Shown: positions 10,520 to 62,305, numbered from the whole stretch's first letter. The stretch: DNA of 62,362 nt, filler included, from Stramenopiles sp. TOSAG23-6 (GCA_900128565.1; 12 parts of 12 records of this genome joined end to end with filler, not necessarily neighbours in it); one strand, 5' to 3'. Notes: generated by a model not told the origin, from the letters alone. Translations and numbers: made by a program.

Positions 10520-11011
10520 GTGTAGTACTTCTGTATCCTTGGGTTGGCAATTATTCAGTCAAAAATGTACGTTTTCAGCATACATTTCAAAAAAAACAAA
10601 AGTTATTATTAAAACATTGTACCTAACAATTTTTGTACTCAAAAACAAAATATTTTTTCACAATACATATTTGGTTTTATTATTACAGGAGCAATTGAAA
10701 AGAAAATCTCTATTCAATCCACCACCATCTTCAGATAACTTCCATAATTCTAACGAGGAGAATGATTTTTTACTCTTTTTACTTCAATGTATCAATCAAT
10801 TTGTATTAGGTAATGAAGAATTGTGTCAGAATATTGTACCGTATTTGATTTTGGAATCACCAAAAATGAAAAGTTATTCAAAACATGAAATTATTCTTCC
10901 TCAATTAAAATCCGCTATTGAATCTTTATTACGATTGTGTATAGAAAAGCGAGCAGGTTTGCTACCAGCAGTCCGAAATATTGTAATGAATTGTCCAAAT
11001 CATTTGGAAAT
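10520..11011 (+). CDS. Internal exons of a hypothetical protein; GT-AT intron 10567-10668
   Basis: Frame is continuous (..FSQK-Y-LVLLLQ..) after removing the 102-nt copy. Confidence 0.55.
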
Positions 11012-11103
11012 GTATGTTTTATTTTTTTTCAAATTCGAATGTTTTTTTCGTACGAAATTTTGTACCTAACAAATTTTTTTTCAAATATTTTTCTAAAATA
11101 CAT

Positions 11104-11722
11104 GCTCTGTCGACATAGATGTGTTCCGCGATCGGGTGGCTTTAAAAGAAGTTCAAGCTCGTCTTACAGCGATGCGAAGATTCTTGAAGCCAATATTTAA
11201 TGAATATGCTGCTGATGACGACAGTGATGCTGCTATTAATTCACTTGGCACTGTCAATGTAAATGAATTAACTACATTTGCAAAAGAATGTAATTTATTT
11301 GGTCCTTTGTTTGGATATCGATCACTGCGAACAATATTTTGCTACTGCCAACAGGAAGAGGAAGCATTAGAGGAAAACGAAGAAGATGGAGAAGAGTCAG
11401 AAATGGTATATTCGGAATTTAAGGAGGTGGTCGTTGCAATAAGTTGTTTTATGCGACCTAATCCATATGTAACTAGTATGTATTATTTATTACACTTTTG
11501 TATTCATATATCCAACGTATTACCCATTTTTCTTGTTTACTACACAGCAGTTTTAACACTTGTATAAATATTCATCATATATATACTTTTCTTTTCAATA
11601 TCAACAACACTACAGTGGAAATCAATGCTTATAATTTTGTAAATGAAATGGTGATGCCTGCTTTAGTAAGTTTACCACGATTTGGTGGTAAAAAAAAACT
11701 TAAATGGAAGAAACCAAAGTAA
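11104..11722 (+). CDS. C-terminal exons of an EF-hand-like hypothetical protein
   Basis: ORF 11121-11567 (IFNEYAA..VNVNELTTF..EMVYSEFKE) plus a last exon after a GT-AG intron at about 11477-11615. Confidence 0.55.
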
Positions 11723-11830
11723 TTTTATATAAATGTCAATGTAACTATTTTAACGAATATTGCTATTTATTTTTGTAGTAAAGATATATCTCGTAACTAT
11801 ATCCAACTACTACATTCGTATATCACAAAT

Positions 11831-14800
11831 CTACCGTTTACCTCGATATCTTAACCCAGAAGAAGTAGAAGACGCAGAAGAAACATTCTTACTTCCCGTC
11901 GAAGTAGACTTTGTTACATTTTCGGATGTACTACTTAATAATTCCGCTGCGGCAGCTTTCCGTCTACGCCAGTACATAAAGGCGCATCCTCCCCACACAA
12001 AAATATTTCCAGAACAGAAGATCAGTAAACCACCAAACACTTTAATAAATGTCATAAATACTGGCATTAAATCAGAAAGAGTGGTTGCCTTCGCACTTTC
12101 CATCATTGCTGAAAATATATCTGGAGAAAATACCCACGTACAGAACCTATCCCATACAAACGTACCAACTAATGCTAGAGAGACGAGATACATTACATGA
12201 AAACGAAATGCATCATCAGGAAATGGTTCCAAATGAATTAAACCATTTACATATGGGCTTACAGCCCACGCGCATGCACCCACGCCAGCAAAACATAAAA
12301 ATAACGACAAAAATAAAGCGTGATTTTCAATTGTACCTTTCATCCATGGTCTACCTTTGTAGTTTACAAATAAAACAGCAACGATTGATGATGTTTCTAC
12401 CAAAAATACGACTGTATTCATCAAATTTGGCATAAATGGACGTGACCACATAAACATAATATCTGCAAAAGGGTCGGCAGTTACATCTGTAATGTCAGAT
12501 TCTGAGGAATCCGATATTGCTTGGAGTGCATCATAATCATCATCATATGTCTTTGCAGCATTGCGATTGAAAGCAACCACAGCTTTTAATGCTTTTGGGC
12601 CCATTGCTTCTGTTGCTAGATGTACTGCTGAAACCATACAATACAAATGTATGCAGGCCTGGCCAATCATTGAAATAAATATTGTCGGGTGAAATAGTGA
12701 ATGCAATGGCCGTGTACGATGCATTTTATCTACAGGAGTTGCGTATGAAAAGGCTAAAGATGCAATCATAATAAGCCAAGACGAAGCCATCAACTGCCGT
12801 TCCGAACTTCGTGCACCTTCAAGTGATAAAGCTGAGAGAGTGTACGCTGAAATTATACATTCAAGCATCATATATAGTAAAAAAATATGTTTGAAGTTTG
12901 AATTTTGTTAGGCGCGTGACAAAATTGGACAACAAAAACAAATTAAAATTGGAATGAATGATGAAAACATACATGATCTGTTGCTGTTGAAGGGCACTAA
13001 GTAAAGTACAACGCCCTTGGCGAATAATATCAACAACCGTGCGAATCGTTGGCGTCCTTGAGGTAAAAGGAGCAGCCACTGATGCATCACCTGGGCGCAC
13101 AACAGGAAGCATACCTCCCATATCTTCCATATCACCTAAAGCATCCATTGGATTTCCAGAATCTGCTTTGTACACATTATTCTTCGAACCAAGTCTTCTT
13201 GATTCCATTTGCATTTCATTTTTGACTCGCAAAGTTACATTCTTTAAAGCAGTCAAATTTGCCATGAAACCTGTTTGCCCTTCTGCCGCAAGTCTTGCAA
13301 GTTCTTCTTCCAGCATTTCTTTTTGTTTTCCTGCCAATTCCTTTTGTTTTGTAGCGAGAATAGCTTTAGATTTTGCCTGCATCACCGCCTGGGAACGTTT
13401 TAAATCTTCGGCCTGTTTATTCAACTCATCTTCAGTACTTCCAGCACTATTTTCAATTTTGGATAATGATGTTTTATCATCTTTAGCTGTCGTTGTGTTG
13501 GCATTGCCGTACCCTGAAAGCAATGCTAGGCCAACATCAGCTTGTTTTAATGCACCAACGTCATTACCACCATCACCACACATAAGAACATGGTGACCTT
13601 TACGCCGCTGCATCTCACGAATAAGTATTGTGAAAAAATATTTCAGAAATTTGAAATTCGTTAGGTATGATATTTTAACTAAAAATAAATGAATTCATTA
13701 AAATAATCAAAACGTACAATCTTGGCTTTTCCTTGAGGAGACATTCGAGCAAATACTTGAATAGCATCAACATGATCCCACAACGTTCCACCACTTTTCT
13801 CTGCTGCCGCTAAGAGAACTTTTTCTGTTACAACCAAATTATTATGTTTTGCAAGTTCAGGAATTCCTAAAGCATTAAAGGGAACAGAAATACGTTCTGA
13901 TACATCACCCGTTGCAGAATTCCATGTAAATTGTTCACCAGTACTATCAACAGTCAATACCAATGACGAATAGCTATCCGTACCGATTTTAGATAAGACA
14001 TTCTTCTTAGAGTCACTTCCATTTTGTACAACATTGTCACGGCATATACCCACCTCTTTAGCAACATGAAGCGCTGTCAAAGGCGCATCACCTGTAATCA
14101 TTGCAACGGAATGGTCAGATTCACGCAAGGATCCTATTACTATACGCGAGTCTTTGCGAATCATACAAGTGAATGCAATAAAACCAGCGAAATGTAAATT
14201 GCTTTCTACCCACTCACGAGATGGACCATCACCACCTTCTGTACCGCATTCTCCCTTTGCACATTGTTTATAAGCGAGCGCAAGCACACGCATTCCATGT
14301 TCGGCAAGATGTCGATAACTCTCATCATACCAAGATGGAGCAGCGCCTTCAGCAAGTAATGATCGTAAAGCTTCAGGGGATCCTTTGACAAGACAATATT
14401 TACCACTGGAAAGGCCATTTTGGCGCCCCTCAACTTTACACACAACACTCATTCTCTGAAGCTTCGACGAGAAATGATACCGATGAAGTATCTTTGAAGA
14501 TGAAACAGCAGAATTTCGAGCTTTTTTTTCAACACTACAAATTTTATTACGAATATTATCTATATCCTTTTGTAAATCGGAAATTTGCATATTTTGTTCA
14601 GGAGTTGCAGGTGCATTACCCGATTTGATTAAATCATGTAAAGCCTTCAATTTTTCAGATACCATTTTTTCACGCTTTTTGAGATTAATTGTAGTACCAG
14701 GAGTAGCAGTGTTAGTATCTGCATTAAATTGCCATTGAACGCCTTTTAGAGCCGCGAGTTCTATAGGATCACCTACCATACCAACATCTTTAACCTTTAC

Positions 14801-15538
14801 CAAAGAGTGACACGATGCAAGAACTAATGCAGCCTCGGCGGATGATTCAGGTACTGGGCTAGTTTTACGAGGACATTTAGACACATCAAACTCTCCTGAC
14901 TTTTGTTTTGCTTTTCCTACCTTAAGATCAGGTTCTGAATTAACAGTAACTACACCAACAGGCGATAACGTATCCGTTGTAATTGTCCCAGTCTTATCAA
15001 ACAAACAATGTGAAACCTTTCCAGCATACGGAACTCGAAATGGCTCGGTGCAAAAAAGACCCGCTTTCGTGAGAGACATGAGGGCAGTATTTACAGCTAA
15101 TGCCATTTGCAGAGGAAGTCCTCGAGGAACGACAGATGTGATTATGTAATGAAGAAAAATATTTTGAGTTCGAAATTCGTTAGGTACAAAAACTTTGTTT
15201 TTTTTTTAATTGTTTTGGATTGTTTTTAATTGTTTTGGATTGTTTTGGATTGTTTTGAATTGTTTTGGATTGTTTTGGATTATTTTGGATTATTTTGGAT
15301 TAGGTGCAAAAAAAGTTTAGGTAAAAAAACATACATAATGACACATTTCAATAATAATTCATGTGTCGTTCGATCACCCTTTTCAAGTCCTTTCTTCAAG
15401 ACATATCCAGATGCAACTAAAGCAAAGAATAATAACAATAATAATGCTAAACCAATCTCTTTGGAATCTCCAGAGACTTTTTGAGTCGATGCAAACTCAA
15501 TCATCTGCATTAACTCACCTTGCGATGAACTGAACCCG
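11831..15538 (-). CDS. ATP13A1: P5A-type cation-transporting ATPase (ATP13A1/Spf1 family), 5' part missing; exons 15538-15335, 15143-13718, 13622-12973, 12869-11831
   Basis: DKTGT phosphorylation motif, TSVVPRGLP, KGSPE, MITGD, ARMSPQGK, MCGDGGNDVGALKQA, GDASVAAPFTS, IIRQGRCTL. Intact only when three non-AG introns are removed. Confidence 0.93.
12870..12972 (-). mobile_element. Intron-family copy, GT-AT (upstream exon ends AT)
   Basis: Removal restores ALQQQQI-M-MLECIISAY; body is diverged but keeps CCTAAC. Confidence 0.85.
13623..13717 (-). mobile_element. Intron-family copy, GT-TT (upstream exon ends TT)
   Basis: Removal of GTACGT..CACAATACTT restores ARMSPQGKAKI-IREMQ. Confidence 0.85.
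15144..15334 (-). mobile_element. Intron-family copy, GT-AT, expanded by a 10-bp tandem repeat (about 15210-15301)
   Basis: Removal restores LLKCVI-I-ITSVVP; internal (TTGTTTTGGA)n on the + strand. Confidence 0.88.
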
Positions 15539-15766
15539 GTGTATTTTGGAAAAATATTTCAAAAAAAAATTCGTTAGGTACAAAATTTCGTACNNNNNNN
15601 NNNNNNNNNNNNNNNNNNNNNNNNNNNNNNNNNNNNNTTAATTAATTAANNNNNNNNNNNNNNNNNNNNNNNNNNNNNNNNNNNNNNNNNNNNTTTCAAA
15701 AAAAAATCGTTAGGTACAAAATTTCGTATGAAAAATAAATTCGAAATTGAAAAAAAATAAAACATA

Positions 15767-20761: not shown

Positions 20762-20920
20762 GTACGTTTTATTTTTTTTCAATTTCGAATTTATTTTTCG
20801 TACGAAATTTTGTACCTAACNNNNNNNNNNNNNNNNNNNNNNNNNNNNNNNNNNNNNNNNNNNNTTAATTAATTAANNNNNNNNNNNNNNNNNNNNNNNN
20901 NNNNNNNNNNNNNNNNNNNN

Positions 20921-21653
20921 ATCCCTGTCTTACATGTATTTCGGAAAAATATTTCAAAAAAAAAATCGTTAGGTACAAATTTTCGTACGAAAAAAAAATT
21001 CGAAATTGAAAAAAAATAAAACGTACATGTATTGGTGCTTTTTGTTTCACTTTGCAAATAACACCTTGGGTTGAGCATGCTCGACCTTGAATTTGTGTAC
21101 ACATGAAAGCACCTAAATTATAATGAACACAAAAATCCCAAATTGCTTTGACGTGTGCTTCACCAGCATAGAGATGAAGTGTTCCCATATTCCCCCCCTG
21201 GTTTTGATCTTTTATTGGTAGTTTAAGCAATAGTTTACAATCTACATGTTGACACATATGGTGTAAAATTTGCTCACACAAATTCAAAGCTAATTGGTGT
21301 CCAGCACAGAATGACTGTACAACTCCAGGCGTTTCGTCTCCTGTCCAAACACGAACACTTGCGTTTAGATCTTTAATTGGTATAGTTCTTTCAGCACGGC
21401 AACGCAAGTTGGTATTTTCCGTACACATTTTATGTAATATCATATCACAATACTCATAGGATAGTTCATTTTTCGAACAAAAGTTACGTACAGTTTTAAC
21501 TGGTGGTTGGCCTTTAAACACTTGCACAGTTCCAATCACGACATTATCTTCACCCCTGATGGGTATATGCACTAATAAATTCGGATCATTAAGAATAGCG
21601 GTAGCGTGGCGAATAGCTATGAGAAAAAATACCCCATAAAAGTGAGGAAACAT
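20921..21653 (-). CDS. Secreted protein with repeated ~55-aa Cys-containing modules; GT-AT intron 20934-21026; truncated
   Basis: Signal-like N-terminus and three FC..(x8)C..I...(M)C modules. Confidence 0.65.
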
Positions 21654-31148: not shown

Positions 31149-31346
31149 CATTTTGTAAAAATATTTCAAAAAAATCAAAAACAATTTGTTAGGTACAAAA
31201 TTTCGTACGAAAAAAAATTCATAGTAAAAAAAAATAAAACATACACNNNNNNNNNNNNNNNNNNNNNNNNNNNNNNNNNNNNNNNNNNNNTTAATTAATT
31301 AANNNNNNNNNNNNNNNNNNNNNNNNNNNNNNNNNNNNNNNNNNNN

Positions 31347-45280: not shown

Positions 45281-46848
45281 TTAATTAAATTGTGATGACG
45301 GTCTTTTTTCATTCTTATGTTCACTTATCAATAAGCCTTTACCATCAATTTTGTGTTCAATTTATTTTTTTTGTTAATTTAGTTACATTTTTTTTCAAAT
45401 TTGTTAGGTACGAAATTTTCTATAAAAAAAATCGGAAAAAAAATTCGGAAAAAAAATTCGGAAAAAAAAAAAACATACATGTTCATCTTCTGTCCAGCTT
45501 TCATCTCCACTACTAATTTCTTCTTCCTCAAGTATTTCTTTCATTTCTGTAGTCGCAGATCTTGCAGCAATCTGTGATTCTACTACGTCTAGTGCAGTAC
45601 TTTGAACATCAATAGTTAGTCTCTGTAAAACACATGGATCTAGAGCATGTATTTTGGAAAAATATTTCAAAAAAAATCGTTAGGTACAAAATTTCGTAAC
45701 TTAAATTTCTTAGGTACAAAATTTCGTACGAAAAAAAAATCGATTTTTTGTTAAAAAAAAAAATAAAACATACATCTCTATCCAAAGCTGAGATTTCATC
45801 ACGTAATACTGCAGCAGCTTCAAAGTCACTCGATCGAATGGCGTCACGGAGTTCAGAAAGTTTTTCATCAACAAGTACTGTGAAAAAATATTTTTTTTTT
45901 GATAAAATATTGGTTAGGTACAAAATTTCGTATGGAAAAAAAATGAAATGAAACAAAGAAAGACAACCGTACAATTTCACGCAGAGCTTCAATCCACTCT
46001 TGTTTTTCAACATTCTCAGATAAAACACGGCTTGCTTCCTCAAGTTCGCTATCATCTATATATATTGTACAAAAATATTTCAAAAATTTGGTTTTTTGTT
46101 AGGTACAAAATCTCTGGATTTTCAATGAAAAAACAAATAAATTTGAAATTCATAATTATTTTCAATGAAAAAACAAATAAATTCGAAATTCATAATGAAA
46201 TCGTACACCTTCTGAAAGCCTAACCATTCTTTCCCGTCGAGATCTTTTACGTTCCTCCTCGGAATCATAGGACACATCCGAATCAAAATTATTATCATTC
46301 GTTTTACTATTTTCCATATTTACATTCAAAGTTGGTGATTCATTATTTCGCACATTTTTGACATTCTTCATTTTTTGATCGTTTGTAGTATTTTCTTTAT
46401 GTTGCATGGATTCCTTAGAAGAAATAGCATCATCATTGTCATTTACACGAGTTTCACTATTCACTACCAGAGAAAGATTACTCTCGAGGTAATTTCGTGT
46501 TCCTCCATGTTCTTCACCCCAATCAATTAACCACCTTTTTTTGGCAATATTATACGAAATAACTAAACCTGAAATTCCTTTTTTAGAGCCTCGTTTTGCT
46601 ATAACAGTTTTTCCAGGAGCAATAGTTTTGTCATCAGAAGTATTAGAATGTTTTATATCTCGATAAATTGTCTTTTTTATATCTGGGGTAGCTTCATCAT
46701 TAGGGTTACAGTTATTCAATTTGGCTTCTGATTTGGCTTCTGGGGTAATGGATTTGTCACGTGTTTCATTTGAAACCATATTCATACGTAATTTCATTGA
46801 TTTTCTTGATGATGTATTAAATAATACTCCAGGTGTAGATTTTGAAGA
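45281..46848 (-). CDS. Multi-exon hypothetical protein with UVR (UvrB/C) coiled motif; introns include 45647-45773 (GT-AT) and 45873-45972 (GT-TT)
   Basis: LRDAIRSSDFEAAAVLRDEI motif; joins REI-VDEK and LDRD-ALDP are in frame. The last junction is uncertain. Confidence 0.6.
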
Positions 46849-47112: not shown

Positions 47113-47442
47113 ATCAATGGGTAATTCAACAAACACAGGTCCAGGTACTCCACTTTTTGCTACTTGGAAGGCCAGTTTAAGTGTGGGTACAATATCACGA
47201 ACCCGGTTCACAGTGTAGGATTTTTTGCAGACGCCTTGAAACATTGTCAATTGATCGATGTATTTTGGAAAAATATTTCAAAAAAAAATCTAAATTTTTT
47301 TGTTAGGTACAAAATTTCGTACGAAAAAAAAAATCGATTTTTTTTTTACCGGAAAAAAAAAATTAAACGTACATATCCTGGAGGGCTCCACGTCCTTTGA
47401 GAAGTGTCGCAGCCGCTCCACCGAGTAATACCAAAGGTGATT
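47113..47442 (-). CDS. ILVBL: Two exons (47442-47373, 47257-47113) of acetolactate-synthase-like protein / 2-hydroxyacyl-CoA lyase 2
   Basis: Hand translation gives [72 protein letters not shown]; not in the ORF track. Confidence 0.88.
47258..47372 (-). mobile_element. Intron-family copy, GT-AT, close to consensus
   Basis: Removal restores the TPP-enzyme motif GALQD-I-DQ; no AG at a usable position. Confidence 0.9.
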
Positions 47443-47589
47443 GTGTATTTTGGAAAAATATTTCAAAAAAAATATATAAAAAAATTTGTTAGGTACAAAA
47501 TTTTTTTACCAAAAAAAAAAAAAAATTGTTAGGTACAAAATTTCGTACGAAAAAAAAATTTAATTTTCGAAAAAAAAATTAAAACATAC

Positions 47590-49176
47590 ATGTCATCACT
47601 TAACTTAAAACTTGAAAAATCAATGTGATTTCCAGTGGTACAGAGTATTTCAAGGACTGCATCATTTGCGGGAGTGTTTAACGCTGTGCATACAGTATTG
47701 TATACCATTTTTATTGCCGCTTTGTTTGGATTTATTTTTATATCTGGTTTATCAATGTTTGAAAAAGATTCAGTTGATTTTATCGAGAGATTTGAACTTT
47801 TCTTTTTCCCTGCTAAAACTGGAAGTACTGACAATTTGTCTAGACTACTTACTCTACTATTGGATACATCATTGCTACTATTATTAGATGCATCATTTTT
47901 CGTTTTACTAGTAATATTTTTGGTTTTACTATTGGCAATGTTTTTGGTTTTACTAATATTTTTAGTTTTACTATTCGTTTTATTACTTTTGGTAATATTC
48001 ATTGATGTTGTATTACCCCCGACATGTATTTTGGAAAAATATTTCCCAAAAAAAATCGTTAGGTACAAAATTTCCTATAAAAAACAAATTCAATTTCAAA
48101 TTTAAAAAAAAAAAAAATGAAACATACATCAATCGGAACAATCCCCAAATTCGGGGGATTCTTGGCTTTTATACCTATTTCTGTACCAAACGAATTTTGT
48201 GTCGCTATTGGGTCCCTCTGCTGCTTTGAAGAAAATAATTGTAATGATTTATTTTCTCTTGTTTGTCGCTGAATTCTTCTTCTTCCTTCGTTGTTCATAT
48301 GCGTTGTATGTATTTTGGAAAAATATTTCAAAAAAAATTTTAGAAAAAATTGTTAGGTACAAAATTTCGTACGAAAAAAAATTTAGACTAAAAATTGAAA
48401 AAAAATAAAATATACATGCGTTGTATCAGGCGACATTCCAACAGTGCTCTTTTTAAAACTTTTTGTTGAATTTGCTGAAATGGTCACAGGCTTAGTAGAC
48501 ATCTTGTTTGTAGTATCCTTTTCTCGTGAATTTCGAATATTTTGAATCCCACCAATCTTTAAACTTTCTGAAGCCCAAGATTCATGTATTTTGGAAAAAT
48601 ATTTCAAAAAAAATCTAAAAAAATTTGTTACGTACAAAATTTCGTACGAAAAAAAAATCGATTTTTTTTTTTCGAAAAAAAAAAAAAAATAAAACATACA
48701 TACAATGTCGAAGGAGATGTTTGACTACTATTGAGGTTATTGAGGTGTTTTTCTACTATTTTTTCCCCTGATTTTGATTCACTATTTGTGTTTACACTAC
48801 ATTTAGACAGAGCATGTCTAAATCCATGTATTCTAGTGAGTTTTTCAATGAGTTTTGCTGTTCTATGTTTTGTGAAAATAGCTAGCAGGTGTTTTTCCAA
48901 TGGCTTTCCATCTTTTTGACAAAATAGACTATATAACTGACTAATACTAGAGACGTCGAGTAATTTATACAAGCATCTACTTTCATACAAATCTACATTG
49001 AGTACCATTCTTGCATTGATAGGCTTTATTGTTTCAATACCAAGTAATTCTGATCGAGAAGCGCGTACTAAAAAGCTTGAGTCCCAGAATTTCAGGATGG
49101 CATTTTTAAAGTCCTCATCTTTTCTTTTTTGTTTGTCTTCTGAGGAAGAAAAACCAATCCTCAAAGATTTCATCAT
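47590..49176 (-). CDS. Multi-exon hypothetical protein, 3' end missing; GT-AT introns 48024-48127, 48308-48415, 48584-48699
   Basis: Four exons join in frame. Confidence 0.65.
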
Positions 49177-49401: not shown

Positions 49402-50184
49402 CACAGCGGGGCACAGACCCTGTTTTTTATGCCAAATTCAGAATTTTCACTTTTTTGGTACGAATTTTCGTAGTTAATTTTTTTGGTACGAAATTTCGTA
49501 GTTAATTTTTTTTTTTTATGGAAAAGTGCTCCTTCCTCAAAAAATGACAATGTCTAATTAAACAATGTTAGGCGTAGAGTTTCTTCATGTAACTTTGTAG
49601 ATGTTCTGGGGTTAGCATTTGCAGCATACGATTTCAATCTCTACAAAAAACTCTGCCTACTTTAGAAATTAGAGCATTTTTACGATTTTTCACTTTTGGC
49701 ATAAATAGCTTGTCTTTCGACGTTGAACACCCCCCTCCCCCTTTTTTTGGTATATAGTAGCATATTCAAAGTAAATGAAGAAAAATGAAAGAATCATCAT
49801 AACCCATAATTGTTCATTACTATATTTTGATTAATTTTATTGATTATGAAATATTATTTTTTTTTAGAAAAATATACTCATCATTACCAGTTATTCTACG
49901 ATCTGCATCATATAACAATGCAACTGGTTCTCGTTCACCAGCCACTGGTTCTTCAGCCTTAAACATGTCAATTTGGTCCATTTTTTAGATTTGTGAAATG
50001 AAGAAAGTATACAAGTGAGGAATAAAAAAGTAAAAGGATTTAACTGTGTACAGGTAGCAGATGGTGAAAAAGTCAGTTCATTACTTCAAGGTACCGGGTA
50101 TCAAGCGTCTGATTATTCGCCGCAATAAATATGATTGTAACACCCCACTGGGGGGTGTGAAAACAGGGTCTGTGCCCCGCTGTG
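49402..50184. mobile_element. Non-autonomous DNA transposon (783 bp), perfect 25-bp TIRs, 3-bp TSD GTG
   Basis: CACAGCGGGGCACAGACCCTGTTTT at 49402-49426 and its exact reverse complement at 50160-50184; GTG at 49399-49401 and 50185-50187; no transposase ORF. Confidence 0.9.
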
Positions 50185-50321
50185 GTGGCCGGTGATTTTT
50201 ACTGATTTTTACTAAAAAATCACCAACTGACTCCAACTGACTTTGGCTTGAATTTGATTTAGATTGAGACGTATATGTTATTATTTGCTACTGTATTAAT
50301 AGTAAGACAACATATACAAAA

Positions 50322-51424
50322 ATGAATAATGTGTTTCAGTACAATATTGGTTCTGTGGCTCTTAAAGGGCGGCGTCCATATATGGAGGATGCAACTCTTT
50401 CAGTGAGCAGTACATGGTTGTGGAATGGATGTCAACTTCATTTATTTGGAGTACTAGATGGTCATAAAGGTACACGCGCTGTAGAGTATGTCTGCGAACA
50501 TTTCCCAACTACACTCTTCGAAACAATCAAGTTTGCTGTGAACAAGAATACTACTGATGGCACAATCTCTAGTGAAGAATCTATCATCAGAACAGCATTT
50601 ACACAAACTTCACATGAAATAGACCGAAATTTTAACATCATGGCAAAGAAATGCAACTGGAAAGATGGCGCTGTCGCTGTATTTAGTCTTTTTATTGGAT
50701 CAACGGTCTATATAGCAAACATAGGTGATTGTCGAGCTATACTGTGCCAATCAAGTAGTGATGGTCGCGATGGCGAAAATCATTCAGTCTTACCATTTTT
50801 AAAATTAGCTTGGTGTAGTACTGATCAAGTGCGTTTCCATCTTTTTCTTTTTTTTTTTTTTTTTAAATCTAAATATTTTTTTCATACGAAAATTTGTACC
50901 TAACGATTAAAAAAAATTTCACGATTTCATACTATAGACGCCAAGTTCTTCGAGTGAAGTGACACGTATCAAAAAAGCAGGCGGAATAATTAAATTCTCA
51001 AAAAAAACACGTGAAGCACGAATAAGAGGTTGTTCTTTTTCTCGATCATTTGGCGACTTTCATTTAAAGGACAATAATGTATGTTTTATTTTTTTTTTTT
51101 TACGGTAAAAAAAAAATCGAATTTATTTTTTTTTTTTGGTGAAAAAATTTTGTACCTAACAAATTTTTTTTTTTGAAAAATTTTGAAATATTTTTCTAAA
51201 ATACATGAAATAATATCAAAACCTGAAGTTACGAAAATTTGCTTACAAAACGTACAAAAATTTGTACCTAACCAAAAAAAAGAAAAAAATGATAAAAATG
51301 ATAAAAATGATAAAAATGATGATAGATGTTATTACTTTTTATTACTGGTATCAGACGGTGTTACATCAGTGTTATCAAATCAGCAATGTATCAATAATAT
51401 TCGAAAAAGTATTTTATCACTCGG
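50322..51424 (+). CDS. Protein phosphatase 2C (PPM family); introns 50829-50937 (GT-AG) and 51079-51206 (GT-AT); 3' end lost
   Basis: GRRPYMED, FGVLDGHKG, ANIGDCRAIL, STDQ-TP..EVTRIKKAGG, SRSFGDFHLK, LLLVSDGV. Confidence 0.92.
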
Positions 51425-51479: not shown

Positions 51480-51517
<38 letters not shown>

Positions 51518-51629: not shown

Positions 51630-51667
<38 letters not shown>

Positions 51668-52040: not shown

Positions 52041-52196
52041 NNNNNNNNNNNNNNNNNNNNNNNNNNNNNNNNNNNNNNNNNNNNTTAATTAATTAANNNN
52101 NNNNNNNNNNNNNNNNNNNNNNNNNNNNNNNNNNNNNNNNATTTTGTACCTAACAAATTTAAGTTTTTTTTTTTGAAATATTTTTCCAAAATACAT

Positions 52197-54591: not shown

Positions 54592-56392
54592 ATGTTGTCC
54601 AGGGCCAATGAGAGTACCACATCTGATTCATCCTCTGAGTTGCCAATTGCTTCAATAGAGACGTTGGTGCAACAATTATCTGAAAAAGCAACAATTGAAC
54701 AGGAGCTCTATACTACAATAGACAAGTTGAAGAATGTAAAGATGGTTGGCGTCGATTCGTGGTCAAGTAAGCTCAGTGAAGTAAAAGTCATGGCGCAGAG
54801 ATTAAATTTCATGCGCACATCACTCCAAGAAAAGGATTTAGTTATAGAAGAACATCGGCAGAATTATTTAACGTTAGAAAGACAAAATGCACTGCTGAAG
54901 CAGAAGGCTTTTGTGTCACATGATGACGAATTGAATATCAAAAGTTCTTTAGAGTCACGGGTAGTTGAACTAGAAACAAAACTATCGAAAAAAATGGAAG
55001 AATGCAACGAATTCGAACAACTATTTATGAAAATACAGTTTGAACTTGAGGCTGCTCAGCGGACTATGGAGAGTTTAAATCAACAAATCACTGATCAAAA
55101 AGTTCAAATTTCAAATATGGAGCGCGAAAAACTTAGCTCTCAAGAACTCACAGAGTCAACTCGTCACACCTTATTAGAAAAAGTGCAGTGTTTGGAATCT
55201 GAAGTAAGAAAATTAAAGGACGAAAATGCAACCATTTTAAGGCGAACAGAGGATATAAAAACTGAATTAGAAATTGAAACTGAATCCAAGGATAGGTACG
55301 TTTTCGTCATGAATTTCAAATTTTGTTTTTCATACGAAATTTTGTACCTAAGATTTTTTATTTTTTATTTTTTCACAATACAGGTTACGACGTAGAAATA
55401 TTTCATTGACTACAGAAATGGAAAACTATGAAAAAGAGACCCTGGAACTTCGGAATGAGGTTGGTAATTTAGAACTTCGTCTATCTCAAGTAACACGACT
55501 GAAATCAATAGCTGAAGAAGAAACCCGGGAGGTTGAAGTTGAAGCTATGCAATGGAGGGATGAGGCTCGATCAGCGACTGATGCAGCATACGGAATAGAG
55601 CTAAAGCAAGCTCGTGATAATGATTCTCTTCGTAAAAAGGTTGATGGAGCTGAAGAGGCTAGACAAAAATTAGAAAAGCAAGTGAGTGAAATGCAAGCTC
55701 AGATAGATTCTTCAATGCCACGCGTTGAAAAAGCTGAGTCAGCAGCGAGAGAAGCACAGGCTAGTGCGGATGCTGAGGTCATTAGACTTCAAAGTGATAT
55801 GAAAAAACTTATGCTTCAGCTGGAAGATCAAACGGGAAAAATAGGTAATATTCAAACTCAGTCACAATGGAGAATGGATAGTTCAACTGTATCAAAAGGT
55901 AAAGGAAATAAAGATGGAGCAAAATTCAATTCTTTATCAAAACATGCAGCAAGTATTCGCGAGGAAATGAAGAATTTCCAAAATAATAGAAATGTGGATA
56001 GTAAAAATGATAGTTTTCCTTCAACAGTTCAATCAGAATATTTCGGTCCTTTGCTGGTGAAGGATGATAAAATAGAAGGTACAATTAATCCTTTACCAAT
56101 ATTAACCCCAGTGCCAATAAAAAAGGGTGATAAGCCATTATATGTACCAAATTTACCTGTAAATGACGATGAAGTGTCCAAAGCAATGGCTTTAGATATT
56201 AACGTTGCAATGGAAGATGCTCTTAAGGAAGCGAAAGAAATTGAGCGTCGACTACGACGCAAAACTAAAGGGAGTAAAACGAACAGCAAAACAAAGAATA
56301 AAACAAATAGTCGACAAAGTACTTCAAAAGGACTTCGGAGAAATCGTCAACATCGAAGTAAGCCTTCTTCGCCATATCTAAACAATAAATAA
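54592..56392 (+). CDS. Coiled-coil protein; intron 55296-55383 (GT-AG, exon also ends AG)
   Basis: Two ORFs join as SKD-R-LRRRN; heptad-rich. Confidence 0.75.
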
Positions 56393-56440
56393 ATGTGAAA
56401 TAAAAGTATTTTTAAAAGTATTTTTCAGTCGTTTTAAGTC

Positions 56441-57154
56441 TTATACATTTATAGAATTTCTAAATGATTTACCAATTCCAAGTAAACTTTTAGCATATCG
56501 TACCAATTCATCAGTAATACTCTCATCTTCCGAATCGTTCCTTGCAGCATCTAGAAGATTTTTCATATGAACATTAATTTCATTGTCTTTTCTTCTCCTG
56601 TTTGATAATTTTGATAATTTTGATAATTTTTGAAAGCTTTGCGTTGAAGAATTTTCTACAATATTCGCGATGACTTGTTTTGAATCTATCATTAATGTAT
56701 TTTGGAAAAATATTTCAAAAAAAAATCGTTAAGTACAACATTTCCTACGAAAACAATAAATTCGAAATTAAAAAAAATAAAACTTACATTGTTTCGAAGA
56801 TGGATTTAAGATTTGAAATGTCGAAGAATTATGTTTGACATCATCCCGGTGCATTCGTTCTACTAATGCATACACATCATTGCCTCGCCGATACACCATA
56901 AGAAGTGTTAATATTCTATTATATATTTCAATATTTGGTGTTATTCCACTTTTTTCAATTTCATGCAATAAACGCAAAGCCTCGTTAGGATCCGTGCATT
57001 TTTGTAAAACTACATTGCAATGTATAGTATTAGCAACACCATTAAGCATCAAAATACTAAGAAAGTCTCGACGTTGTTGATATCGTTTCATTTTTTCGAG
57101 TTTTGATCGTCGAAGTCTTGATAAATCTTCTGAAGAATTCTTGATAGTGAGAGC
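56441..57154 (-). CDS. Pentatricopeptide-repeat (PPR) protein, C-terminal exons; GT-AT intron 56695-56787
   Basis: ALRLLHEIEKSGITPNIEIYNRIL and VYALVERMHRDDVKHNSSTFQIL. Confidence 0.75.
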
Positions 57155-57352
57155 ATGTATTTTGGAAAAATATTTCAAAAAAAAATCGTTAGGTACAAAA
57201 TTTCGTNNNNNNNNNNNNNNNNNNNNNNNNNNNNNNNNNNNNNNNNNNNNTTAATTAATTAANNNNNNNNNNNNNNNNNNNNNNNNNNNNNNNNNNNNNN
57301 NNNNNNGAAAAAAAAATCGATTTTTTTGTAAAAAAAAAAATAAAACATACTT

Positions 57353-58782
57353 CCTGCTGCAACTACGCCTTCGGACACCAACCTCAACAAAAGTAATTCA
57401 ATGTAAACAATCTTCTACGTACCTTGAATTGTTGGAAATTGTGCATAAAGAGCTCTGTTACGCAAGTGCTGATACAGGATCATTGTTATTACTAGCGGGG
57501 TTTCCACCTCGACCAATAGAAAAGCTTCTTTCAAATGTTTCTGCATCTATTTCAGATGCTTTGCGTAACAACGAGGTGATTACAGTGAAGCTTCCTGCAT
57601 CAGATGCGAAGCTTTCGCAAGCACAAAAATCTGGTTCTCAGACAACATTCAGATATAACACACGGCAAAAGAGTGCTGGAAAAAAAGCAACTCCTGCCAA
57701 AGTAACTCAGACCAATAGTACTAAACCTTCTGCACGTGAAGTATCAAGTTATTCCAAAGGTATTCAAACAATGGCATCTCTCAAGAGTAATAGTAATAAT
57801 AATAATAAAGACTCTGATTTTATAAAAAAATCGTCTCGGAGAATTTCACACACAACAAAGAATAATTCTAGTGGCAAGGTTACAACAAAGAAACCTACTA
57901 GGGAAAAGTCGTCAAGTCTAGGAAAACGTGGACGTAATTCGAAAACATTTTCTTTAGCACCTAAAAAAATGAAAGGACCAAATGACGGAATGCAGCAATC
58001 AGATCATACTGTTCATTTACTCCGTAAACTTGCCCAAAGTAGTATGGTGACTCATAAGGAAATTGTACTTGGAAATGCAAGGTTTGCCGCCGCACTTGGA
58101 GGTCACTGGGATGTGTCACCGTACAATGAAGGTGGCCAGACATTGATGCAACAAAGTGCAATGCCTAAATTAATCGTTAGATATCGAAAAGAACAACGAA
58201 AAAGCAGCTTATGGGAACATGACATTGTGGAAAGTTTAAGTAGAGAAGAATTAAGAATGACCATCAGTTATCTCCTACATGGATTAACTACGCAACAAAG
58301 AGAAAATCTTAGACTTTTTAATATGGCTCAAGCATCACCACATATGTTTTCATCATTTTCAAATTTAATTTTGTTTTTGTAGTGAATTTTGTACCTAACA
58401 AATTTAAGTTTTTTTTTTTTGAAATATTTTTTTACTTCAAACGTGTATTTTGGGCGATTGTGATACTAGAAAAAAACGAAAAACGTCCAAGTAGCGAATT
58501 AGAGACGGCTTTACCTAGGCTTTTACCTCAAGAAGATTGGTCATTTCTAACTACAAGGATTCGAAAGTTATCAAAAAAAGCATTAGCTAATTTAAAAAAA
58601 AATACACACACTTCTAAAAATGAGGATAAAAAAGGCATTGTTGCAAGTGATGGTCGATGGGTATCACATAATGAAATGTTGAAATTTGGCCGATTTGTCG
58701 TTTCGGAGATGATGAATAATAAAAAGTATAATGAAAATTTAATGGACAAAAAGAAAGCTTTTATTTGGAAAGAAACTGGAAT
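57353..58782 (+). CDS. Hypothetical protein with N-terminal ubiquitin-like/UBX (OTU1-type) domain; probable AT-AC intron 58342-58442
   Basis: The frame extends upstream as LQLRLRTPTSTKVIQC..LLLLAGFPPRPI; the join ASP-R-VFWAI is in frame. Confidence 0.6.
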
Positions 58783-58893
58783 GTATATGTATTTTTTATT
58801 TTTTTTTTTTACAAAAAAATCGATTTTTTTTTCGTACGAAATTTCGTACCTAAGATTTTTTTTTTTTTTTTTTAATATTGTACCAAAATACAT

Positions 58894-61117
58894 GTCTTCA
58901 ATTTGTGGTTGAACAAAATATTTCAACATTTGATACGGTAACACAGTCACAAAAAAAAGTAACTGTAAAATCAAAGCTAAATTTAATTGATTTAGCTGGA
59001 AGTGAAAAATGGAATATAATGCATGTATGTTTTTATTTTTTTTCAATTTTTTTTTTCTACATTTTTTTTTCATACGAAATTTTTTTACCTAACAATTTTT
59101 TTTTTTACTAACCAAAAAAAAAAAAAAAACTTTTGAAATATTTTTCCAAAATACATGATATGTCAGTAGCTCATCAACAGGAGTTACAAAATATCAATTT
59201 ATCATTACATACTTTAGGGCGATGTATAGAGAAATTATCCTCACATTCTCTACAACACATTCAAAACCCTAACCCTAGAAAAACAAAAAACCCTAACCCT
59301 AGAAAAACAAAAAGACATATCCCATTTCGTGATTCTGTCTTAACTCGATTATTACAAGATTCTCTAGGTGGAAACACAAAAACATTTATTCTTGCAATGA
59401 TTACTCCATCACAATTAAATATAAATGAAACAATATCAACACTAAAATTTGCAGACCGGGCGAAACGAATTCAGATGAAAGTGAAAATAAATCAAATTCG
59501 TAAATTAGATTTGGCGTCATTTGAAAAACTTGAAAATGAAAACAAAAATTTACGTTTTATTTTACAAAAACTTTCAAAAAATATAAATGTAGAACATTTG
59601 GACAACAATTTGGAATCTAGTACAAAAAACAATACAACAAAACAATCGAAATCATCAAATATTTTACAAAAAAATATTATAGACTTAACAAATGACGTTT
59701 TGAGATTAAAAGAAGAAAACAAAAAATTGCATAAAATGTTAGACAATCAATCTTTACAGTATTCAAACCCTACTAACCCTAGTAATACACTACATTGTAC
59801 CTCAGATCAAAATCAACAAAATCAACAAAATGATCGTGTATGTTTTATTTTTTTTTTTTCGGTAAAAAAAAAAAAAAAAATCGATTTTTTTTTTTGGTTT
59901 TCGTACGAAATTTTGTACCTAACAAATTTTTCAAATTTTTTTCTCAAATATTTTTCTACAATACATGAAGAAATCCAAATACTGAGGAGTGCTTTAGATG
60001 TAATGATATCAGGTTGTTCAAGATTTTTTAAATTAGAAATTGAGGAGGATGATTTACAACAAGTATTTACTCGTGTTGTTCAACAAGTACACGAAATAAA
60101 GGAAAAGAAAAAAAAACCCAACCCTACTAAAAACCCTAACCCTAATGAAAAAGCATGGATTTCGTCCAGTAGACGAACATCGTTTATAGCTGCTTTACGG
60201 AACCCTAACCCTAACAATACATATTCAACAAAAAATGTCCAACGATCATCAACGGCACCACTACCGAGTACATTTGCTCAAAACAGACGTTCTAATATGG
60301 TATGTTATTATTATTATTATTATTGTACAATGTAAAAATATGTTTTTTTTTTTTTTTTGAAATTTTTTACATTTTTAAAATTTTTTCATTTTTTTNAAAA
60401 AAAAAAAAAAAATTTTAAAATTCTAAAATTCTAAAATTCTAATATTTTTCATTTGTTTGACATATCAATACAATACATGTACATTTAAATACAAAATATC
60501 GCATCACAGGAAGAAATACAGATGAATCATCAGTGTTTATTGATCCTGTTGAAGTCGAAGAACGAAAACAAAAACAAAAAATAAAAAACTCACGAAAAAA
60601 AATCGAAAAACAAAGAAAATTGATGTTATATATGCAAAAAAAAGCAAAACGAGACTTGGAAATTTTACAACAACACGAAAAACAAAGAGATTGGGAAGTC
60701 GAACAGTTACGTAAGAGTAATGCGAAACGGCTACGACGTGCTCAAATGAATAAGTTAAAAGTATTAAAATATAGAGAGAAACAAATGCAACAAATTGAGA
60801 AAATGAGAAAAAATAAAACATCTACAATTAATAAAATTGATGATAACGACGAAGATAATAACATACTTGATGAGTATACTAATCAAGATATAGCTAATAT
60901 AGATAATATGGATAATATAGATGATATGGATGATATGGATAATATGGATGATATAGATAATTTGGATAATATAGATAATATAGATAATAATATAGATGAT
61001 GCTTATAATTATAAAGATGAATCAACTGACACTGAATGTCCAAAAAATGAGACGATTAATGATGAAAATGATGCTGATAGTATCAATAGTGATAATGAAG
61101 GCGATATTGTTGTATAA
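58894..61117 (+). CDS. Kinesin, C-terminal half of motor domain plus coiled-coil tail; introns 59025-59156 (GT-AT), 59838-59966 (GT-AT), 60300-60509 (GT-AG)
   Basis: [57 protein letters not shown]. Confidence 0.92.
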
Positions 61118-61497
61118 TGGTATACACGATTGTTTGTATACAATTGATTTTCTGCATTCCGTGAAAATAAAAAAAATAAAATTATCAAATACCAAGTATA
61201 TACGCTACTAGCTAGGGTTAGGGTTTAGGGTGTTGAATTCCCGGTACCAGACTAGTCAGCATGATTTTTCTCTTCTTCTTCTTCTTCTTCTTCGAACAAC
61301 AAACAACAACAAGCAAACAACACACACGCACTCTCTCGAAGAAGAAGACATAACAACAATAACAACATTGTTTCGTGATCCTACTACGGACAAACTACAT
61401 ATCTCATTATCGCGATTTGTTCATTCTAATTTCCCAAAGAGTATAGTGTAGTGTTATCCATCTATATATTTTGTATATATTGCATAGTCTAAAGAAT

Positions 61498-62305
61498 ATG
61501 TCTTCCGAAACAAAAGAAGCACAAAAGGAATCCAGAGATGAATGGCCAACTTCTCCAGAGGATTATGAACTCACACGTAAGATTGGTGAAGGAGCATTTG
61601 CAAAGGTCTATGTCGCAAAGTGTCCAACAAAGAACATAGATGTGGCTATTAAAGTCATGGATTTGGAAAAAGTTACGTCAAACTTGGATCATCTTAGACA
61701 AGAAGTTACTACAATGAAATTATGTAGACACAAAAACGTTCTCCCTCTCTATACAAGCTTCAATGTCAAGCGTGAATTATGGTTAGTGATGCCTTATATG
61801 GATAAAGGTTCTCTTCTGGAAGCTATGCGACAATTAAAGAAACTTGGTCGGACTAGCGAGCTCGACGAAGATTGGATTGCTTTTATTCTGAGAGAAGTTT
61901 GTCATGGTCTAGACTATCTCCACTCATCAGGTTGGGTTCATCGAGATATCAAAGCAGGAAATATTTTGTTAAATTCCAGTGGTGATGTAGTCCTAAGTGA
62001 TTTTGGTGTAGCTGGTATTTTGACAAATCCTGACCCAATCAATCATGATAATAATCGAAACACTTTTGTTGGTACCCCATGTTTGTTTTATTAACCCTAA
62101 CCCTACTATCAAATGTATTTTTTTTTTTTTGGTTTTCGTACGAAATTTTGTACCTAACTTTTTTGATGATACAATTTCGTGTTTTTTCACAATATATGCT
62201 GGATGGCTCCGGAAGTAATGAAGCAAAGCGCGGGCTATACAGAAAAAGCAGATATTTGGTCCCTTGGCATTACTGCCTTGGAGTTGGCTAAATCATATGC
62301 ACCAT
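61498..62305 (+). CDS. STE20-family Ser/Thr kinase, OXSR1/SPAK (Fray)-like; GT-AT intron 62081-62197; 3' end missing
   Basis: [61 protein letters not shown]. Confidence 0.92.
62081..62197 (+). mobile_element. Intron-family copy, GT-AT, in the kinase activation segment
   Basis: Only removal of these 117 nt gives GTPCWMAPE; the first AG after the branch motif lies beyond APE. Confidence 0.92.

Follow-up and report, generated by a model that had tools for sequence, protein, structure and literature searches.

The window, meaning the whole stretch of 62,362 nucleotides that was analysed, is made of 12 contigs of about 5 kb each joined by spacers, and its genes are interrupted by copies of one element family (Table 1). 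About 55 copies of 88-191 nt lie within coding sequence; 39 complete copies and about 12 cut by contig ends are found in at least 15 genes. The core box, at one mismatch or fewer, is matched 84 times against 5.39 expected, a number reached by 0 of 100 shuffles, and a profile built from 14 copies yields 58 merged loci at E<1e-3. These figures bear out the initial annotation, which had described an introner-like repeat family. Of the 37 copies that could be scored, 20 match the consensus at an identity of 0.85 or more; the median pairwise identity is 0.76. Judged against clear flanking frames, 21 copies are in sense orientation, none is antisense and 17 are undecided. The best homologues reach identities of only 42-49% and 74%, and the host is a marine, low-GC protist, probably a heterotrophic stramenopile. 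The sequence collections scanned yielded no element copies, and no snRNA gene was found in the window.

The element opens with a 5' splice site GTAYGT (G in 37/38, T in 38/38; longer consensus GTAYGTTTT), and this GT at positions 1-2 is its best-kept feature. The body is T-rich with a 12-nt palindrome in its middle, the sole palindrome. A branch-site-like box, TTGTACCTAAC, lies 30-47 nt from the 3' end (median 40), and the terminus reads ..AATAC, the final base being C in 31 of 38 copies. The inverted ends noticed in the initial annotation are real but weak, being only 4 + 4 bases long and shifted by one base. In 19 of 38 copies the predicted pairing of the ends amounts to 3 or more expected pairs, a count that has no control; as read from the end sequences, 5' position 4 and the 3' base that it would pair with form about seven C-A mismatches against one compensated pair. 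Between 40596 and 41654 (+) lie tandem 291-bp units, each an exon plus a copy that is doubled and diverged and has AG at its end; these units were spread by segmental duplication and are counted as zero independent insertions. A further intron, at 765-679, is not reported by the element profile; it has the family 5' motif, a similar box and an AG end.

Contig ends fall mostly inside element copies, and a perfect 467-nt hairpin in the assembly covers the distal part of the copy at 51079..51206. The assembly is chimera-prone, given this hairpin and the two or three places where unrelated genes meet within a copy, so some of the end pairs are possibly artefacts, in either direction. Two of the frame exceptions or end mismatches, the joins at 47443..47589 and 58783..58893, are probably chimeric. 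The AC end at 47443, which had been thought to fit the expected codons, lies in a composite copy; because the join in this copy is a probable assembly chimera, its AT/AC pair is not to be counted either way.

Table 1. Copies of the element in the window, with the last two bases of the upstream exon and of the intron
Coordinates	Strand	Copy	Exon/intron end	Remarks
404..541	-	complete	CA/AT	mismatch; older subtype; flanking frames need element + 2 nt
5239..5297	+	3' part, contig-end cut	/AT	
5343..5437	+	complete	AA/TT	mismatch
10100..10192	+	complete	TT/AT	mismatch at -2; AG at 10187 unusable in frame
10467-10519		3' part, contig-end cut	/AT	
10567..10668	+	complete	AT/AT	
11012..11103	+	complete	AT/AT	exception; frames need k=0 or 3 (multiple of 3)
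12870..12972	-	complete	AT/AT	P5A-type ATPase gene
13623..13717	-	complete	TT/TT	P5A-type ATPase gene; homologue-colinear junction
15144..15334	-	complete	AT/AT	with microsatellite; homologue-colinear junction
15539..15593	-	3' part, contig-end cut	/AC	AC + next base = conserved Thr codon
15694..15767	-	5' part, contig-end cut	AT/	
20762-20820	+	5' part, contig-end cut	AT/	
20934..21026	-	complete	AT/AT	
26140..26229	-	complete	AT/AT	gene G1
26501..26588	-	complete	AT/AT	gene G1; AG unused 5 nt before end
27114..27221	-	complete	AT/AT	gene G1
27369..27456	-	complete	GT/AT	gene G1; exon G = synonymous third position (codon reading)
28764..28862	-	complete	AT/AT	gene G1; 99 nt, in-frame open
29245..29351	-	complete	AT/AT	gene G1
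29986..30079	-	complete	AT/AT	gene G1
31146..31244	-	complete	GT/AT	at contig end
36552-36607		3' part, contig-end cut	/AG	
36725..36835	+	complete	TT/AG	canonical end; paralogue of 37152 copy
36944..37043	+	complete	AT/AT	
37152..37262	+	complete	AT/AG	
37927..38056	+	complete	AT/AT	
38222..38329	+	complete	AT/AT	internal AG unused
38569..38711	+	complete	AT/AT	internal AG unused
38977..39086	+	complete	AC/AT	mismatch
41755-41832		3' part, contig-end cut	/AT	
45647..45773	-	complete	AT/AT	box duplicated internally
45873..45972	-	complete	TT/TT	UVR motif begins in frame directly after TT
46949-47112	-	5' part, contig-end cut	AT/	
47258..47372	-	complete	AT/AT	thiamine-pyrophosphate (TPP) enzyme gene
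47443..47589	-	composite	AT/AC	two boxes; unrelated exon joined to TPP enzyme
48024..48127	-	complete	AT/AT	
48308..48415	-	complete	AT/AT	
48584..48699	-	complete	AT/AT	
50829..50937	+	diverged relative	/AG	AG end 5 nt beyond element end; PP2C frame kept
51079..51206	+	complete	AT/AT	distal part in artefactual hairpin
52141-52196		3' part, contig-end cut	/AT	
55296..55383	+	complete	AG/AG	looks like ordinary GT-AG intron
56695..56787	-	complete	AT/AT	
57155-57206	-	3' part, contig-end cut	/AT	
58342..58442	+	degenerate	AC/AC	first base A, last C, hence AT..AC in family register
58783..58893	+	complete	AT/AT	frames need k=0; UBX-like gene joined to C-terminal half of kinesin motor
59025..59156	+	complete	AT/AT	kinesin profile continues through
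59838..59966	+	complete	GT/AT	junction codon Arg or His depending on cut register (codon reading)
62081..62197	+	complete	AT/AT	OSR1-like kinase to residue 190 before, from 192 after, one split codon
62306-62362	+	5' part, contig-end cut	AT/	

Removed length and matching of the intron ends

Removing the element plus 2 nt restores the frame in 22 of the 24 copies with clear flanking frames, the other two (11012..11103 and 58783..58893) requiring another removed length. A single open reading frame of 1478 aa in the standard code, free of stops, spans seven junctions. Homologue alignments run colinear over 15334-15144, 13717-13623, 62081-62197 and 59025-59156, and together with 45873 these make five junctions, both TT/TT cases included, at which the homologues fit. 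Reading frames and homologues thus indicate that the element and one copy of the repeat must leave the mRNA, as the initial annotation had proposed. It had also placed an AC end at the truncated copy at 15539; there, all 4 homologues that extend this far have the Thr of TGF aligned with the codon formed by AC and the following base. The 3' cut does not depend on AG: between box and end, an internal AG is bypassed in 7 of 34 copies, and AG ends just 3 of the 39 complete copies. Wherever the repeat is intact, cutting as GT..AT, TG..CA or AT..AC gives an identical mRNA; we favour 5' cleavage at GT.

The 39 complete copies were fixed by coordinates, with the 3' end placed 2 nt beyond the aligned end of the element, irrespective of which bases stand there. 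Intron ends are AT in 31, TT in 3, AG in 3 and AC in 2. The last two bases of the exon equal those of the intron in 29 of 39 copies (AT/AT 25, TT/TT 2, AG/AG 1, AC/AC 1); the 10 mismatch pairs are GT/AT in three copies and AC/AT, AT/AC, AT/AG, TT/AG, TT/AT, AA/TT and CA/AT in a single copy each, both positions differing in AA/TT, CA/AT and TT/AG. The initial annotation had called for such a tabulation, and its four non-AT cases (TT/TT twice, AC/AC, AG/AG) read as it gave them. Its match counts of 24, 2, 1 and 1 are right as well, but the 10 mismatches were left unlisted, two of them (5343-5437 and 541-404) lying before the coordinate at which it starts. Upon permutation of the intron ends, 21.95 matches are expected against the 29 found (p=8.5e-5), and 0.49 non-AT matches against 4 (p=2.9e-4). 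When the degenerate copy at 58342 is left out together with three joins under suspicion (n=35), 3 non-AT matches stand against 0.43 expected (p=0.0034). Given this excess, end matching goes beyond the AT bias, the informative copies numbering just 3-4. The non-AT matching copies are all of the more diverged subtype, with 0.74-0.82 identity to the consensus. In the target context, -3 is C in 17 of 37 and +1 is G in 26 of 37, against a background of about 17-18%; T occupies exon position -1 in 33 of 37 copies, and A follows ..ATAC in 35 of 38. The interpretation in the initial annotation is supported in part: independence from AG holds (AG 3/39, 7/34 bypassed). The duplicated copy itself may be the acceptor; that it would serve whatever its sequence is drawn from 3-5 non-AT copies, and 10 of the 39 copies do not follow the rule.

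Relation to known introns and transposons

Minor introns accept varied 3' dinucleotides, and U12-type introns show RTATCCTT as their 5' site, with the branch box placed about 10-26 nt from the 3' end. Read two bases upstream, 25 of the 39 copies are AT..AC and in this resemble them; membership is rejected, the 5' end being GTAYGTTTT and the box lying at a median of 40 nt from the end. Helitrons insert between A and T without duplication, and have 5' TC, 3' CTRR and a hairpin near the 3' end. They too are rejected, the termini here being TGTA..TACA at best and the non-AT ends covarying with the flanks. Neither do the copies belong with the hairpin-dependent non-conventional introns of euglenids, diplonemids and Amoebophrya, which lack a conserved GT 5' site and whose two ends pair stably, given GT in 37 of 38 and weak pairing.

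Introners of Aureococcus anophagefferens are grouped with those of Micromonas; this type has canonical GT/GC-AG ends, AG being supplied or co-opted, to which the copies here do not conform, AG ending 3 of the 39 complete ones. In the review PMC11282704, Micromonas pusilla introners are short, non-autonomous and present in many unrelated genes, with a short target duplication on either side; the element gives one splice site, and is removed with one copy of the duplication. Their duplication, according to the same review, is of 3 nt with a co-opted AG, whereas here it is of 2 nt, mostly AT. MITE-derived non-canonical introns with terminal inverted repeats and target site duplications are described in Fritillaria borealis (Henriet et al. 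2019, as summarised in PMC11282704), an animal in which, by that summary, the duplication is of 3 nt and the introns mostly start with AG (AG-AC, AG-AT), in contrast to the 2 nt and the textbook GTAYGT of this protist. Amoebophrya A25 and A120, also marine protists, carry repeated non-canonical introns with direct repeats across the exon/intron boundaries and inverted ends (PMC7789003). There the repeats are of 3-5 nt, the inverted repeats of 8-20 nt form hairpins, a dinucleotide signature is absent and U1 is reported undetected; here we find 2 nt, weak end pairing, one dominant family and a strong GT. That a duplicated target can act as a non-AG acceptor is already on record for Fritillaria and, in outline, for Amoebophrya. 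The contrast with known introners drawn in the initial annotation was overstated: the Amoebophrya introners, by PMC7789003, have 3-5-nt repeats over non-canonical boundaries. Among transposons, ISL2EU elements (PIF/Harbinger-related, PHIS) are described in PMC4122938 as having a 2-bp duplication, typically AT, their reported hallmark; the same duplication at AT-rich targets is found here, and by this one feature suggests a putative link.

Mechanism of insertion and position of the cut

We consider it rather probable that the copies form an introner family, derived from a non-autonomous DNA transposon that duplicates 2 bp at a (C)AT(G) target, and that their 3' cut is AG-independent. Short copies, possibly moved by a DDE transposase, would have inserted in sense within coding exons, each supplying its own GTAYGT 5' splice site and branch box. 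Insertion would duplicate two target bases, mainly AT, in the context (C)AT(G); splicing would take out the element with one copy of the duplication, and thereby bring back the frame that the exon had before. As most duplicated pairs are AT, the intron would generally read GT..AT, or equally AT..AC. The 3' cut would be positioned regardless of AG, and older copies would drift toward AG. Against this explanation stand the 10 of 39 copies without an end match. No transposase was found among the 20 ORFs scanned in the window, and no longer element, empty site, intergenic copy or antisense copy was seen in it. More tentatively, the spliceosome may measure off the 3' cut, as with a ruler, from the element terminus or the branch box and take any dinucleotide (AT, TT, AC, AG), one family having built nearly the whole intron complement with old copies drifting to AG; we hold this to be possible and somewhat doubtful. 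If it were true, any sense insertion of an ISL2EU-like element in an exon would be spliceable immediately, and nearly all introns of a free-living marine stramenopile would come from one family.

It is unlikely, yet worth weighing, that the same mobile family is cut two bases upstream at both ends, the intron being AT plus the element ending ..ATAC, an AT-AC intron of U2 or derived minor type, with the downstream AT exonic. Apart from GT-AG, the pairing of A first with C last is the only one known to function, and the element ends in C in 31 of 38 copies; in the sole copy where the element begins with A (58342-58442), the last base is C. The mRNA is the same for all 29 matching copies, and a spliced aligner would call these introns AT-AC. 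However, GT at positions 1-2 is the best conserved feature (37/38, 38/38) within a textbook U2-type GTAYGT, whereas in the upstream register just 31 of 37 introns would begin with A and 31 of 38 would end with C. The TT/TT, GT/AT and AG/AG copies would become TT-AC, GT-AC and AG-AC, the 5' end misfits the minor-type ATATCCTT consensus, and the box, at 30-47 nt from the end, lies beyond the range of minor introns.

We regard as improbable an element with TG..CA ends inserting between A and T without duplication, the repeat being only apparent (element T with flank A, element A with flank T). TGTA..TACA would be a perfect 4-5-bp inverted end, and GT/AT (3), AT/AC, AT/AG and TT/AG would be other target flanks, with no need of later mutation. 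Yet the far flank covaries with the deviant end in the two TT/TT, the AG/AG and the AC/AC copies (4 vs 0.49 expected), which this leaves unexplained, and the Helitron termini are not matched, the sole palindrome lying mid-element. The initial annotation had held this alternative to fit the TT and AC cases less well. The mismatch copies, for their part, can be accommodated under it with fewer ad hoc changes.

Spread without a DNA transposon, by reverse splicing or intron duplication, or homogenisation by gene conversion, is very improbable; the AT after ..ATAC would belong to a 3' signal of the intron, and the exon AT would reflect a preference in insertion or splicing. The lack of a transposase among the ORFs scanned, the weak inverted ends and the lack of an intergenic copy in the window agree with it, the two-position mismatches AA/TT and CA/AT fit it better, and since the intron at 765-679 shares motif and box, part of the likeness may be host splicing consensus. 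But reverse splicing inserts a fixed intron, whose last two bases cannot track the target as they do in the TT/TT, AG/AG and AC/AC copies, and the likeness takes in stretches with no known part in splicing, among them the palindrome and the 20 bases at the 3' end.

An artefact of amplification or assembly chimeras, or ciliate-like elimination at the DNA level, is scarcely credible: the perfect hairpin, the unrelated genes joined inside copies and the breaks at copies speak for it, and short dinucleotide-bounded elements recall sequences eliminated in ciliates, but no copy is antisense to a clear flanking frame, the copies carry a 5' site and branch box needless for DNA excision, the 1478 aa are stop-free in the standard code, and the element is abundant in other studies, with a summed depth of 10^3-10^4 at element positions in contigs from seawater DNA and RNA runs. 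One contig from an RNA run apparently terminates at an intron end.

The repeated element and the length to be removed

A profile built from 14 copies of the element recovers 58 merged loci in the window (E<1e-3), and the 10-base core box, a branch-site-like motif within each copy, occurs 84 times at no more than one mismatch, against 5.39 expected. The copies are 88-191 nt long (median 107) and share one layout: GTAYGTTTT at the 5' end, then a run rich in T, a 12-nt palindrome, the box, more T, and a 20-base tail ending in AATAC. Between the box and the 3' end there are 30-47 nt, with a median of 40. The palindrome, placed just 5' of the box, is perfect, and most young copies retain it; no role in splicing is known for it, and it might be a binding site for a transposase or another protein. 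In seawater DNA and RNA contigs of other studies, summed depth reaches 10^3-10^4 at element positions, a sum that is not a copy number, against single digits at exons; the element therefore exists in nature and is no artefact of this assembly. Metagenome contigs scanned with the 3' 20-mer of the element gave 15 loci, none of which reached E<=1e-3 against the profile of the element, and a scan of viral and genome contigs for element copies gave no match.

Clear reading frames flank 24 of the first 38 curated copies, and in 22 of these 24 the frames require that the element be removed together with two further bases; the other two need removal of a multiple of three. Removing seven copies in this way from the gene G1 yields one ORF of 1478 aa over seven junctions. 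Homologous proteins bear out several junctions down to the single residue. In the ATPase, query coordinates are continuous across two copies, one of them a TT/TT copy, and our protein reads ..GKAKI followed by IREMQ.., where homologues have ..GKAKVIRNLQ... In the OSR1-like kinase, OSR1 is matched through residue 190 by the upstream exon and from residue 192 on by the downstream exon, a single split codon lying between, and a kinesin profile carries on from about 242 to 243 across another copy. A UVR motif lies in the reading frame that opens directly after the TT ending another copy. The initial annotation had proposed that a truncated copy ending in AC fits the expected codon, and this holds: AC and the next base encode the Thr of a TGF motif present in four of the four homologues that reach the site. 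Either the unseen upstream exon must therefore supply AC, or AC is itself exon.

Two copies that mimic rule-breaking introns are probably chimeric joins, located within the repeat. In one, a UBX-like gene runs into the C-terminal half of a kinesin motor, which lacks its first 213 profile positions; in the other, a composite element, a low-complexity exon is joined to a thiamine-pyrophosphate enzyme from about residue 94 onward. Such joins would explain odd frames as well as odd end pairs.

Coordinates of element copies and other features (coordinates written high-low are on the minus strand; X/Y, last two bases of upstream exon/last two bases of intron)
Feature	Coordinates	Observation
Complete copy, CA/AT	541-404	Checked separately as 39th copy; frames need removal of element plus two
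Intron not reported by element profile	765-679	Ordinary GT-AG intron; 5' motif and box resemble those of the element
Spacers (examples)	5139-5238, 10367-10466	44 N, 12-base all-frame stop linker, 44 N
Copy, possible chimeric join	11012-11103	May likewise be a chimeric join
ATPase copy, TT/TT	13717-13623	Homologues continuous
ATPase copy	15334-15144	Homologues continuous; copy (15144-15334) enlarged to 191 nt by a 10-11-base microsatellite inside the intron
Truncated copy	ends 15539	Ends AC
More diverged relatives	16233-16120, 36725-36835, 37152-37262, 55296-55383	AG ends
Copies with unused AG	38222, 38569, 26588	Clear frames; AG 32, 31 and 5 nt from end, respectively
G1 gene	31246-26139	
Eighth G1 copy	28764-28862	99 nt, open in frame; retention adds 33 residues, protein unbroken
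Uninterrupted ORF	31349-36451	
Tandem units	40596-41654	
UVR motif copy	45873	
Composite element, probable chimeric join	47589-47443	
Stretch covered by RNA contig	47808-48027	Contig X10 record 4 (270 nt)
12-nt palindrome (example)	48640-48660	
More diverged relative, in PP2C	50829-50937	AG five bases beyond element end; PP2C frame kept
Hairpin at contig end	51107-52040	
Degenerate copy	58342-58442	Starts with A, ends with C
Probable chimeric join	58783-58893	
Kinesin copy	59025-59156	
Intron with telomere-like repeats	62081-62197	Two CCCTAA units at 62090-62105

Splice signals and the register of the cut

Element base 1 is G in 37 of 38 copies and base 2 is T in all 38; as a 5' splice site of the major type, GTAYGT is textbook. 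Where orientation relative to the flanking frames can be told, 21 copies are sense and none antisense (17 undecided); that no copy is antisense to a clear frame favours RNA splicing over DNA excision. The 3' end is a different matter. Among the 39 copies it is AT in 31, TT in three, AG in three and AC in two, and seven of 34 copies carry an unused AG between the box and the end. In three copies with clear frames the distance of this AG from the end is such that its use would shift the frame. AG ends do occur in more diverged relatives, as they would if copies drifted towards AG with age. An ordinary GT-AG intron that the element profile left unreported has similar signals, and we are therefore cautious, as the family likeness may in part be the host's own splicing consensus.

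Where, then, is the intron cut? Wherever the two-base repeat is intact, cuts at GT..AT, TG..CA or AT..AC yield identical mRNA. The interpretation in the initial annotation is partly supported: there is a two-base repeat beyond AT bias, and its duplicated copy may be the acceptor. Introns that begin with A and end with C are a known, workable non-canonical pair, and a cut two bases further upstream at both ends would make these AT..AC introns, as would suit the one copy that both starts with A and ends with C; this register, however, leaves both intron ends variable. As read from the copies, GT..AT is favoured over it, because GT is their best-kept feature. A cut guided by a hairpin is not proposed, the pairing between element ends being weak (at least three expected pairs in 19 of 38 copies, counted without a control) with many C-A mismatches.

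RNA contig X10 record 4 continues, past the part that matches the window, for 50 nt that are unlike the intron, as expected if spliced, although its joint is absent from the joints listed; contig X8 record 28 reaches 20 nt into an intron and is therefore unspliced RNA or DNA. Over 46949-51100, contigs from one DNA run and from three RNA runs of seawater showed no spliced junction; contig cover of exons there is thin, and the joints shown are cross-matches between copies.

The two-base repeat, its target and known introners

For 39 complete copies fixed by coordinates, the 3' end was placed two bases beyond the point where the aligned element stops, irrespective of which bases these are. The end pairs are AT/AT in 25 copies, GT/AT in three, TT/TT in two, AG/AG and AC/AC in one each, and AC/AT, AT/AC, AT/AG, TT/AG, TT/AT, AA/TT and CA/AT in one each. 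The matching of exon and intron end dinucleotides described in the initial annotation is therefore confirmed and its counts of matching pairs are correct, although ten mismatching copies went unmentioned. Nor is the match a mere AT bias at both ends: 29 matches are observed against 21.95 when intron ends are shuffled among copies (p=8.5e-5, n=39), and four non-AT matches against 0.49 (p=2.9e-4). Leaving out the three suspect joins and the degenerate copy, three non-AT matches remain against 0.43 (p=0.0034). The two-base repeat is real, with few informative copies behind it; the informative non-AT copies all belong to a more diverged subtype, whose identity to the consensus is 0.74-0.82.

The empty sites, when reconstructed, have the form (C)AT(G), with C at -3 in 17 of 37, A at -2 in 31, T at -1 in 33 and G at +1 in 26, against a background of about 17-18% for C and for G. 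The target thus reconstructed is palindromic, with duplication of its central 2 bp. The alternative raised in the initial annotation, a TG..CA element inserted into A^T without duplication, needs no later mutation to account for the GT/AT, AT/AC, AT/AG and TT/AG copies, but leaves the four non-AT matches as unexplained coincidences. Duplications of 3 bp (ATG) or 4 bp (CATG) were rejected: C and G are found on the intron side in 31/38 and 37/38 copies, against only 17/37 and 26/37 at exon -3 and +1, and the consensus A and T persist at exon -2 and -1 (31/37, 33/37). A TA parse of Tc1/mariner type was rejected too, as it would oblige splicing to remove host bases. Reverse splicing is an unlikely origin of the introns, since it gives no means by which the bases ending an intron could come to match its target.

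With a 2-bp target duplication preferred, ISL2EU elements, related to PIF/Harbinger, come to mind, as their 2-bp duplication is "typically AT" (Han et al. 2014, PMC4122938). From this one feature, the mostly AT 2-bp duplication, ISL2EU is a lead. No transposase was found among 20 ORFs scanned in the window.

It has long been asked how bursts of intron gain come about in genomes, and introners are the best-supported answer; known cases mostly depend on making or finding an AG. In this 62-kb window almost every intron belongs to one family, with a perfect 5' site and ends in AT, TT or AC, and two requirements come apart, a strict signal on the 5' side and a dinucleotide on the 3' side that is free to vary. 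A review (PMC11282704) describes Micromonas introners with a 3-nt duplication, one copy of which supplies the 3' AG, and MITE-derived introns of Fritillaria borealis that are mostly AG-AC or AG-AT, an exonic TAC having become the 3' site. Likewise, Amoebophrya introners have 3-5-nt direct repeats over non-canonical boundaries and inverted repeats of 8-20 nt (PMC7789003). Given the Fritillaria and Amoebophrya cases, a duplicated target serving as a non-AG acceptor is not new. In contrast to all three systems, the present family pairs a perfect 5' GT with freedom in the 3' dinucleotide, has a 2-bp, mostly AT duplication that points to ISL2EU, makes up nearly all introns seen in 62 kb, and resides in a probable free-living stramenopile. 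In the literature we found no description of such introns in marine stramenopiles or of AT-AC introners; in the main text of a single-cell stramenopile paper (PMC5778133) "splice" and "canonical" are absent and "intron" appears twice, in routine methods. Large introner surveys (2022, 2025), in the portions drawn on here, admitted introns with familiar splice sites, and those with odd sites if RNA supported them.

If the GT..AT register is true, and the 3' end is indeed set at the element end plus two, the relaxed choice of 3' site so far seen in Fritillaria and Amoebophrya would extend to a free-living protist, an introner would have a named candidate transposase group in ISL2EU, and the family would offer a clean system for asking what transposons need to be born as introns. 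In practice, gene callers that accept only GT-AG will fragment most of this organism's genes, and the element introns will be labelled AT-AC by spliced aligners.

Host, assembly and neighbouring sequence

The 62,362 bases (34.1% G+C, 1006 N) comprise 12 pieces of 5056-5138 bases, ordered by descending length and separated by 11 identical spacers; the window thus strings together short contigs that are unrelated, and adjoining pieces are not genomic neighbours. Most contig ends lie inside an element copy, as expected since a high-copy repeat breaks assemblies. One contig ends in a perfect hairpin of two 467-nt arms, 100% complementary with 0 nt between them, most likely an amplification or assembly chimera. 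Taken with the small DNA runs of 2015 in which the sequence occurs, this hairpin suggests an amplified, chimera-prone assembly.

The gene content is that of an ordinary eukaryote, including WDR3-like, Omp85/Sam50, KH, HSP90, SPRY and PP2C proteins, two DUF4116 proteins, a P5A-type ATPase, the OSR1-like kinase, a kinesin fragment and the UVR motif. In protein searches the best relative of HSP90 is 74% identical (Cafeteria roenbergensis 57%, a EukProt entry with the prefix INCI 59%), and the best matches of the ATPase exon are 42-49% identical, none above 49%. From these matches we read the host as a heterotrophic stramenopile of which the protein collection contains next to nothing, and place it no further. 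A diplonemid origin was dropped: diplonemid non-canonical introns have G/C-rich inverted ends according to the literature, and the named protein matches here are stramenopiles and other groups. Rfam and tRNA scans found no RNA genes in the window.

In one region, tandem 291-bp units, 96% alike, each hold a short coiled-coil exon and a diverged element that is doubled and ends in AG; the exon was duplicated along with its intron. In contrast to its intron-dense neighbours, another stretch is a single uninterrupted ORF of 1701 aa with many single N, free of element copies and with only a weak EGF-like match.
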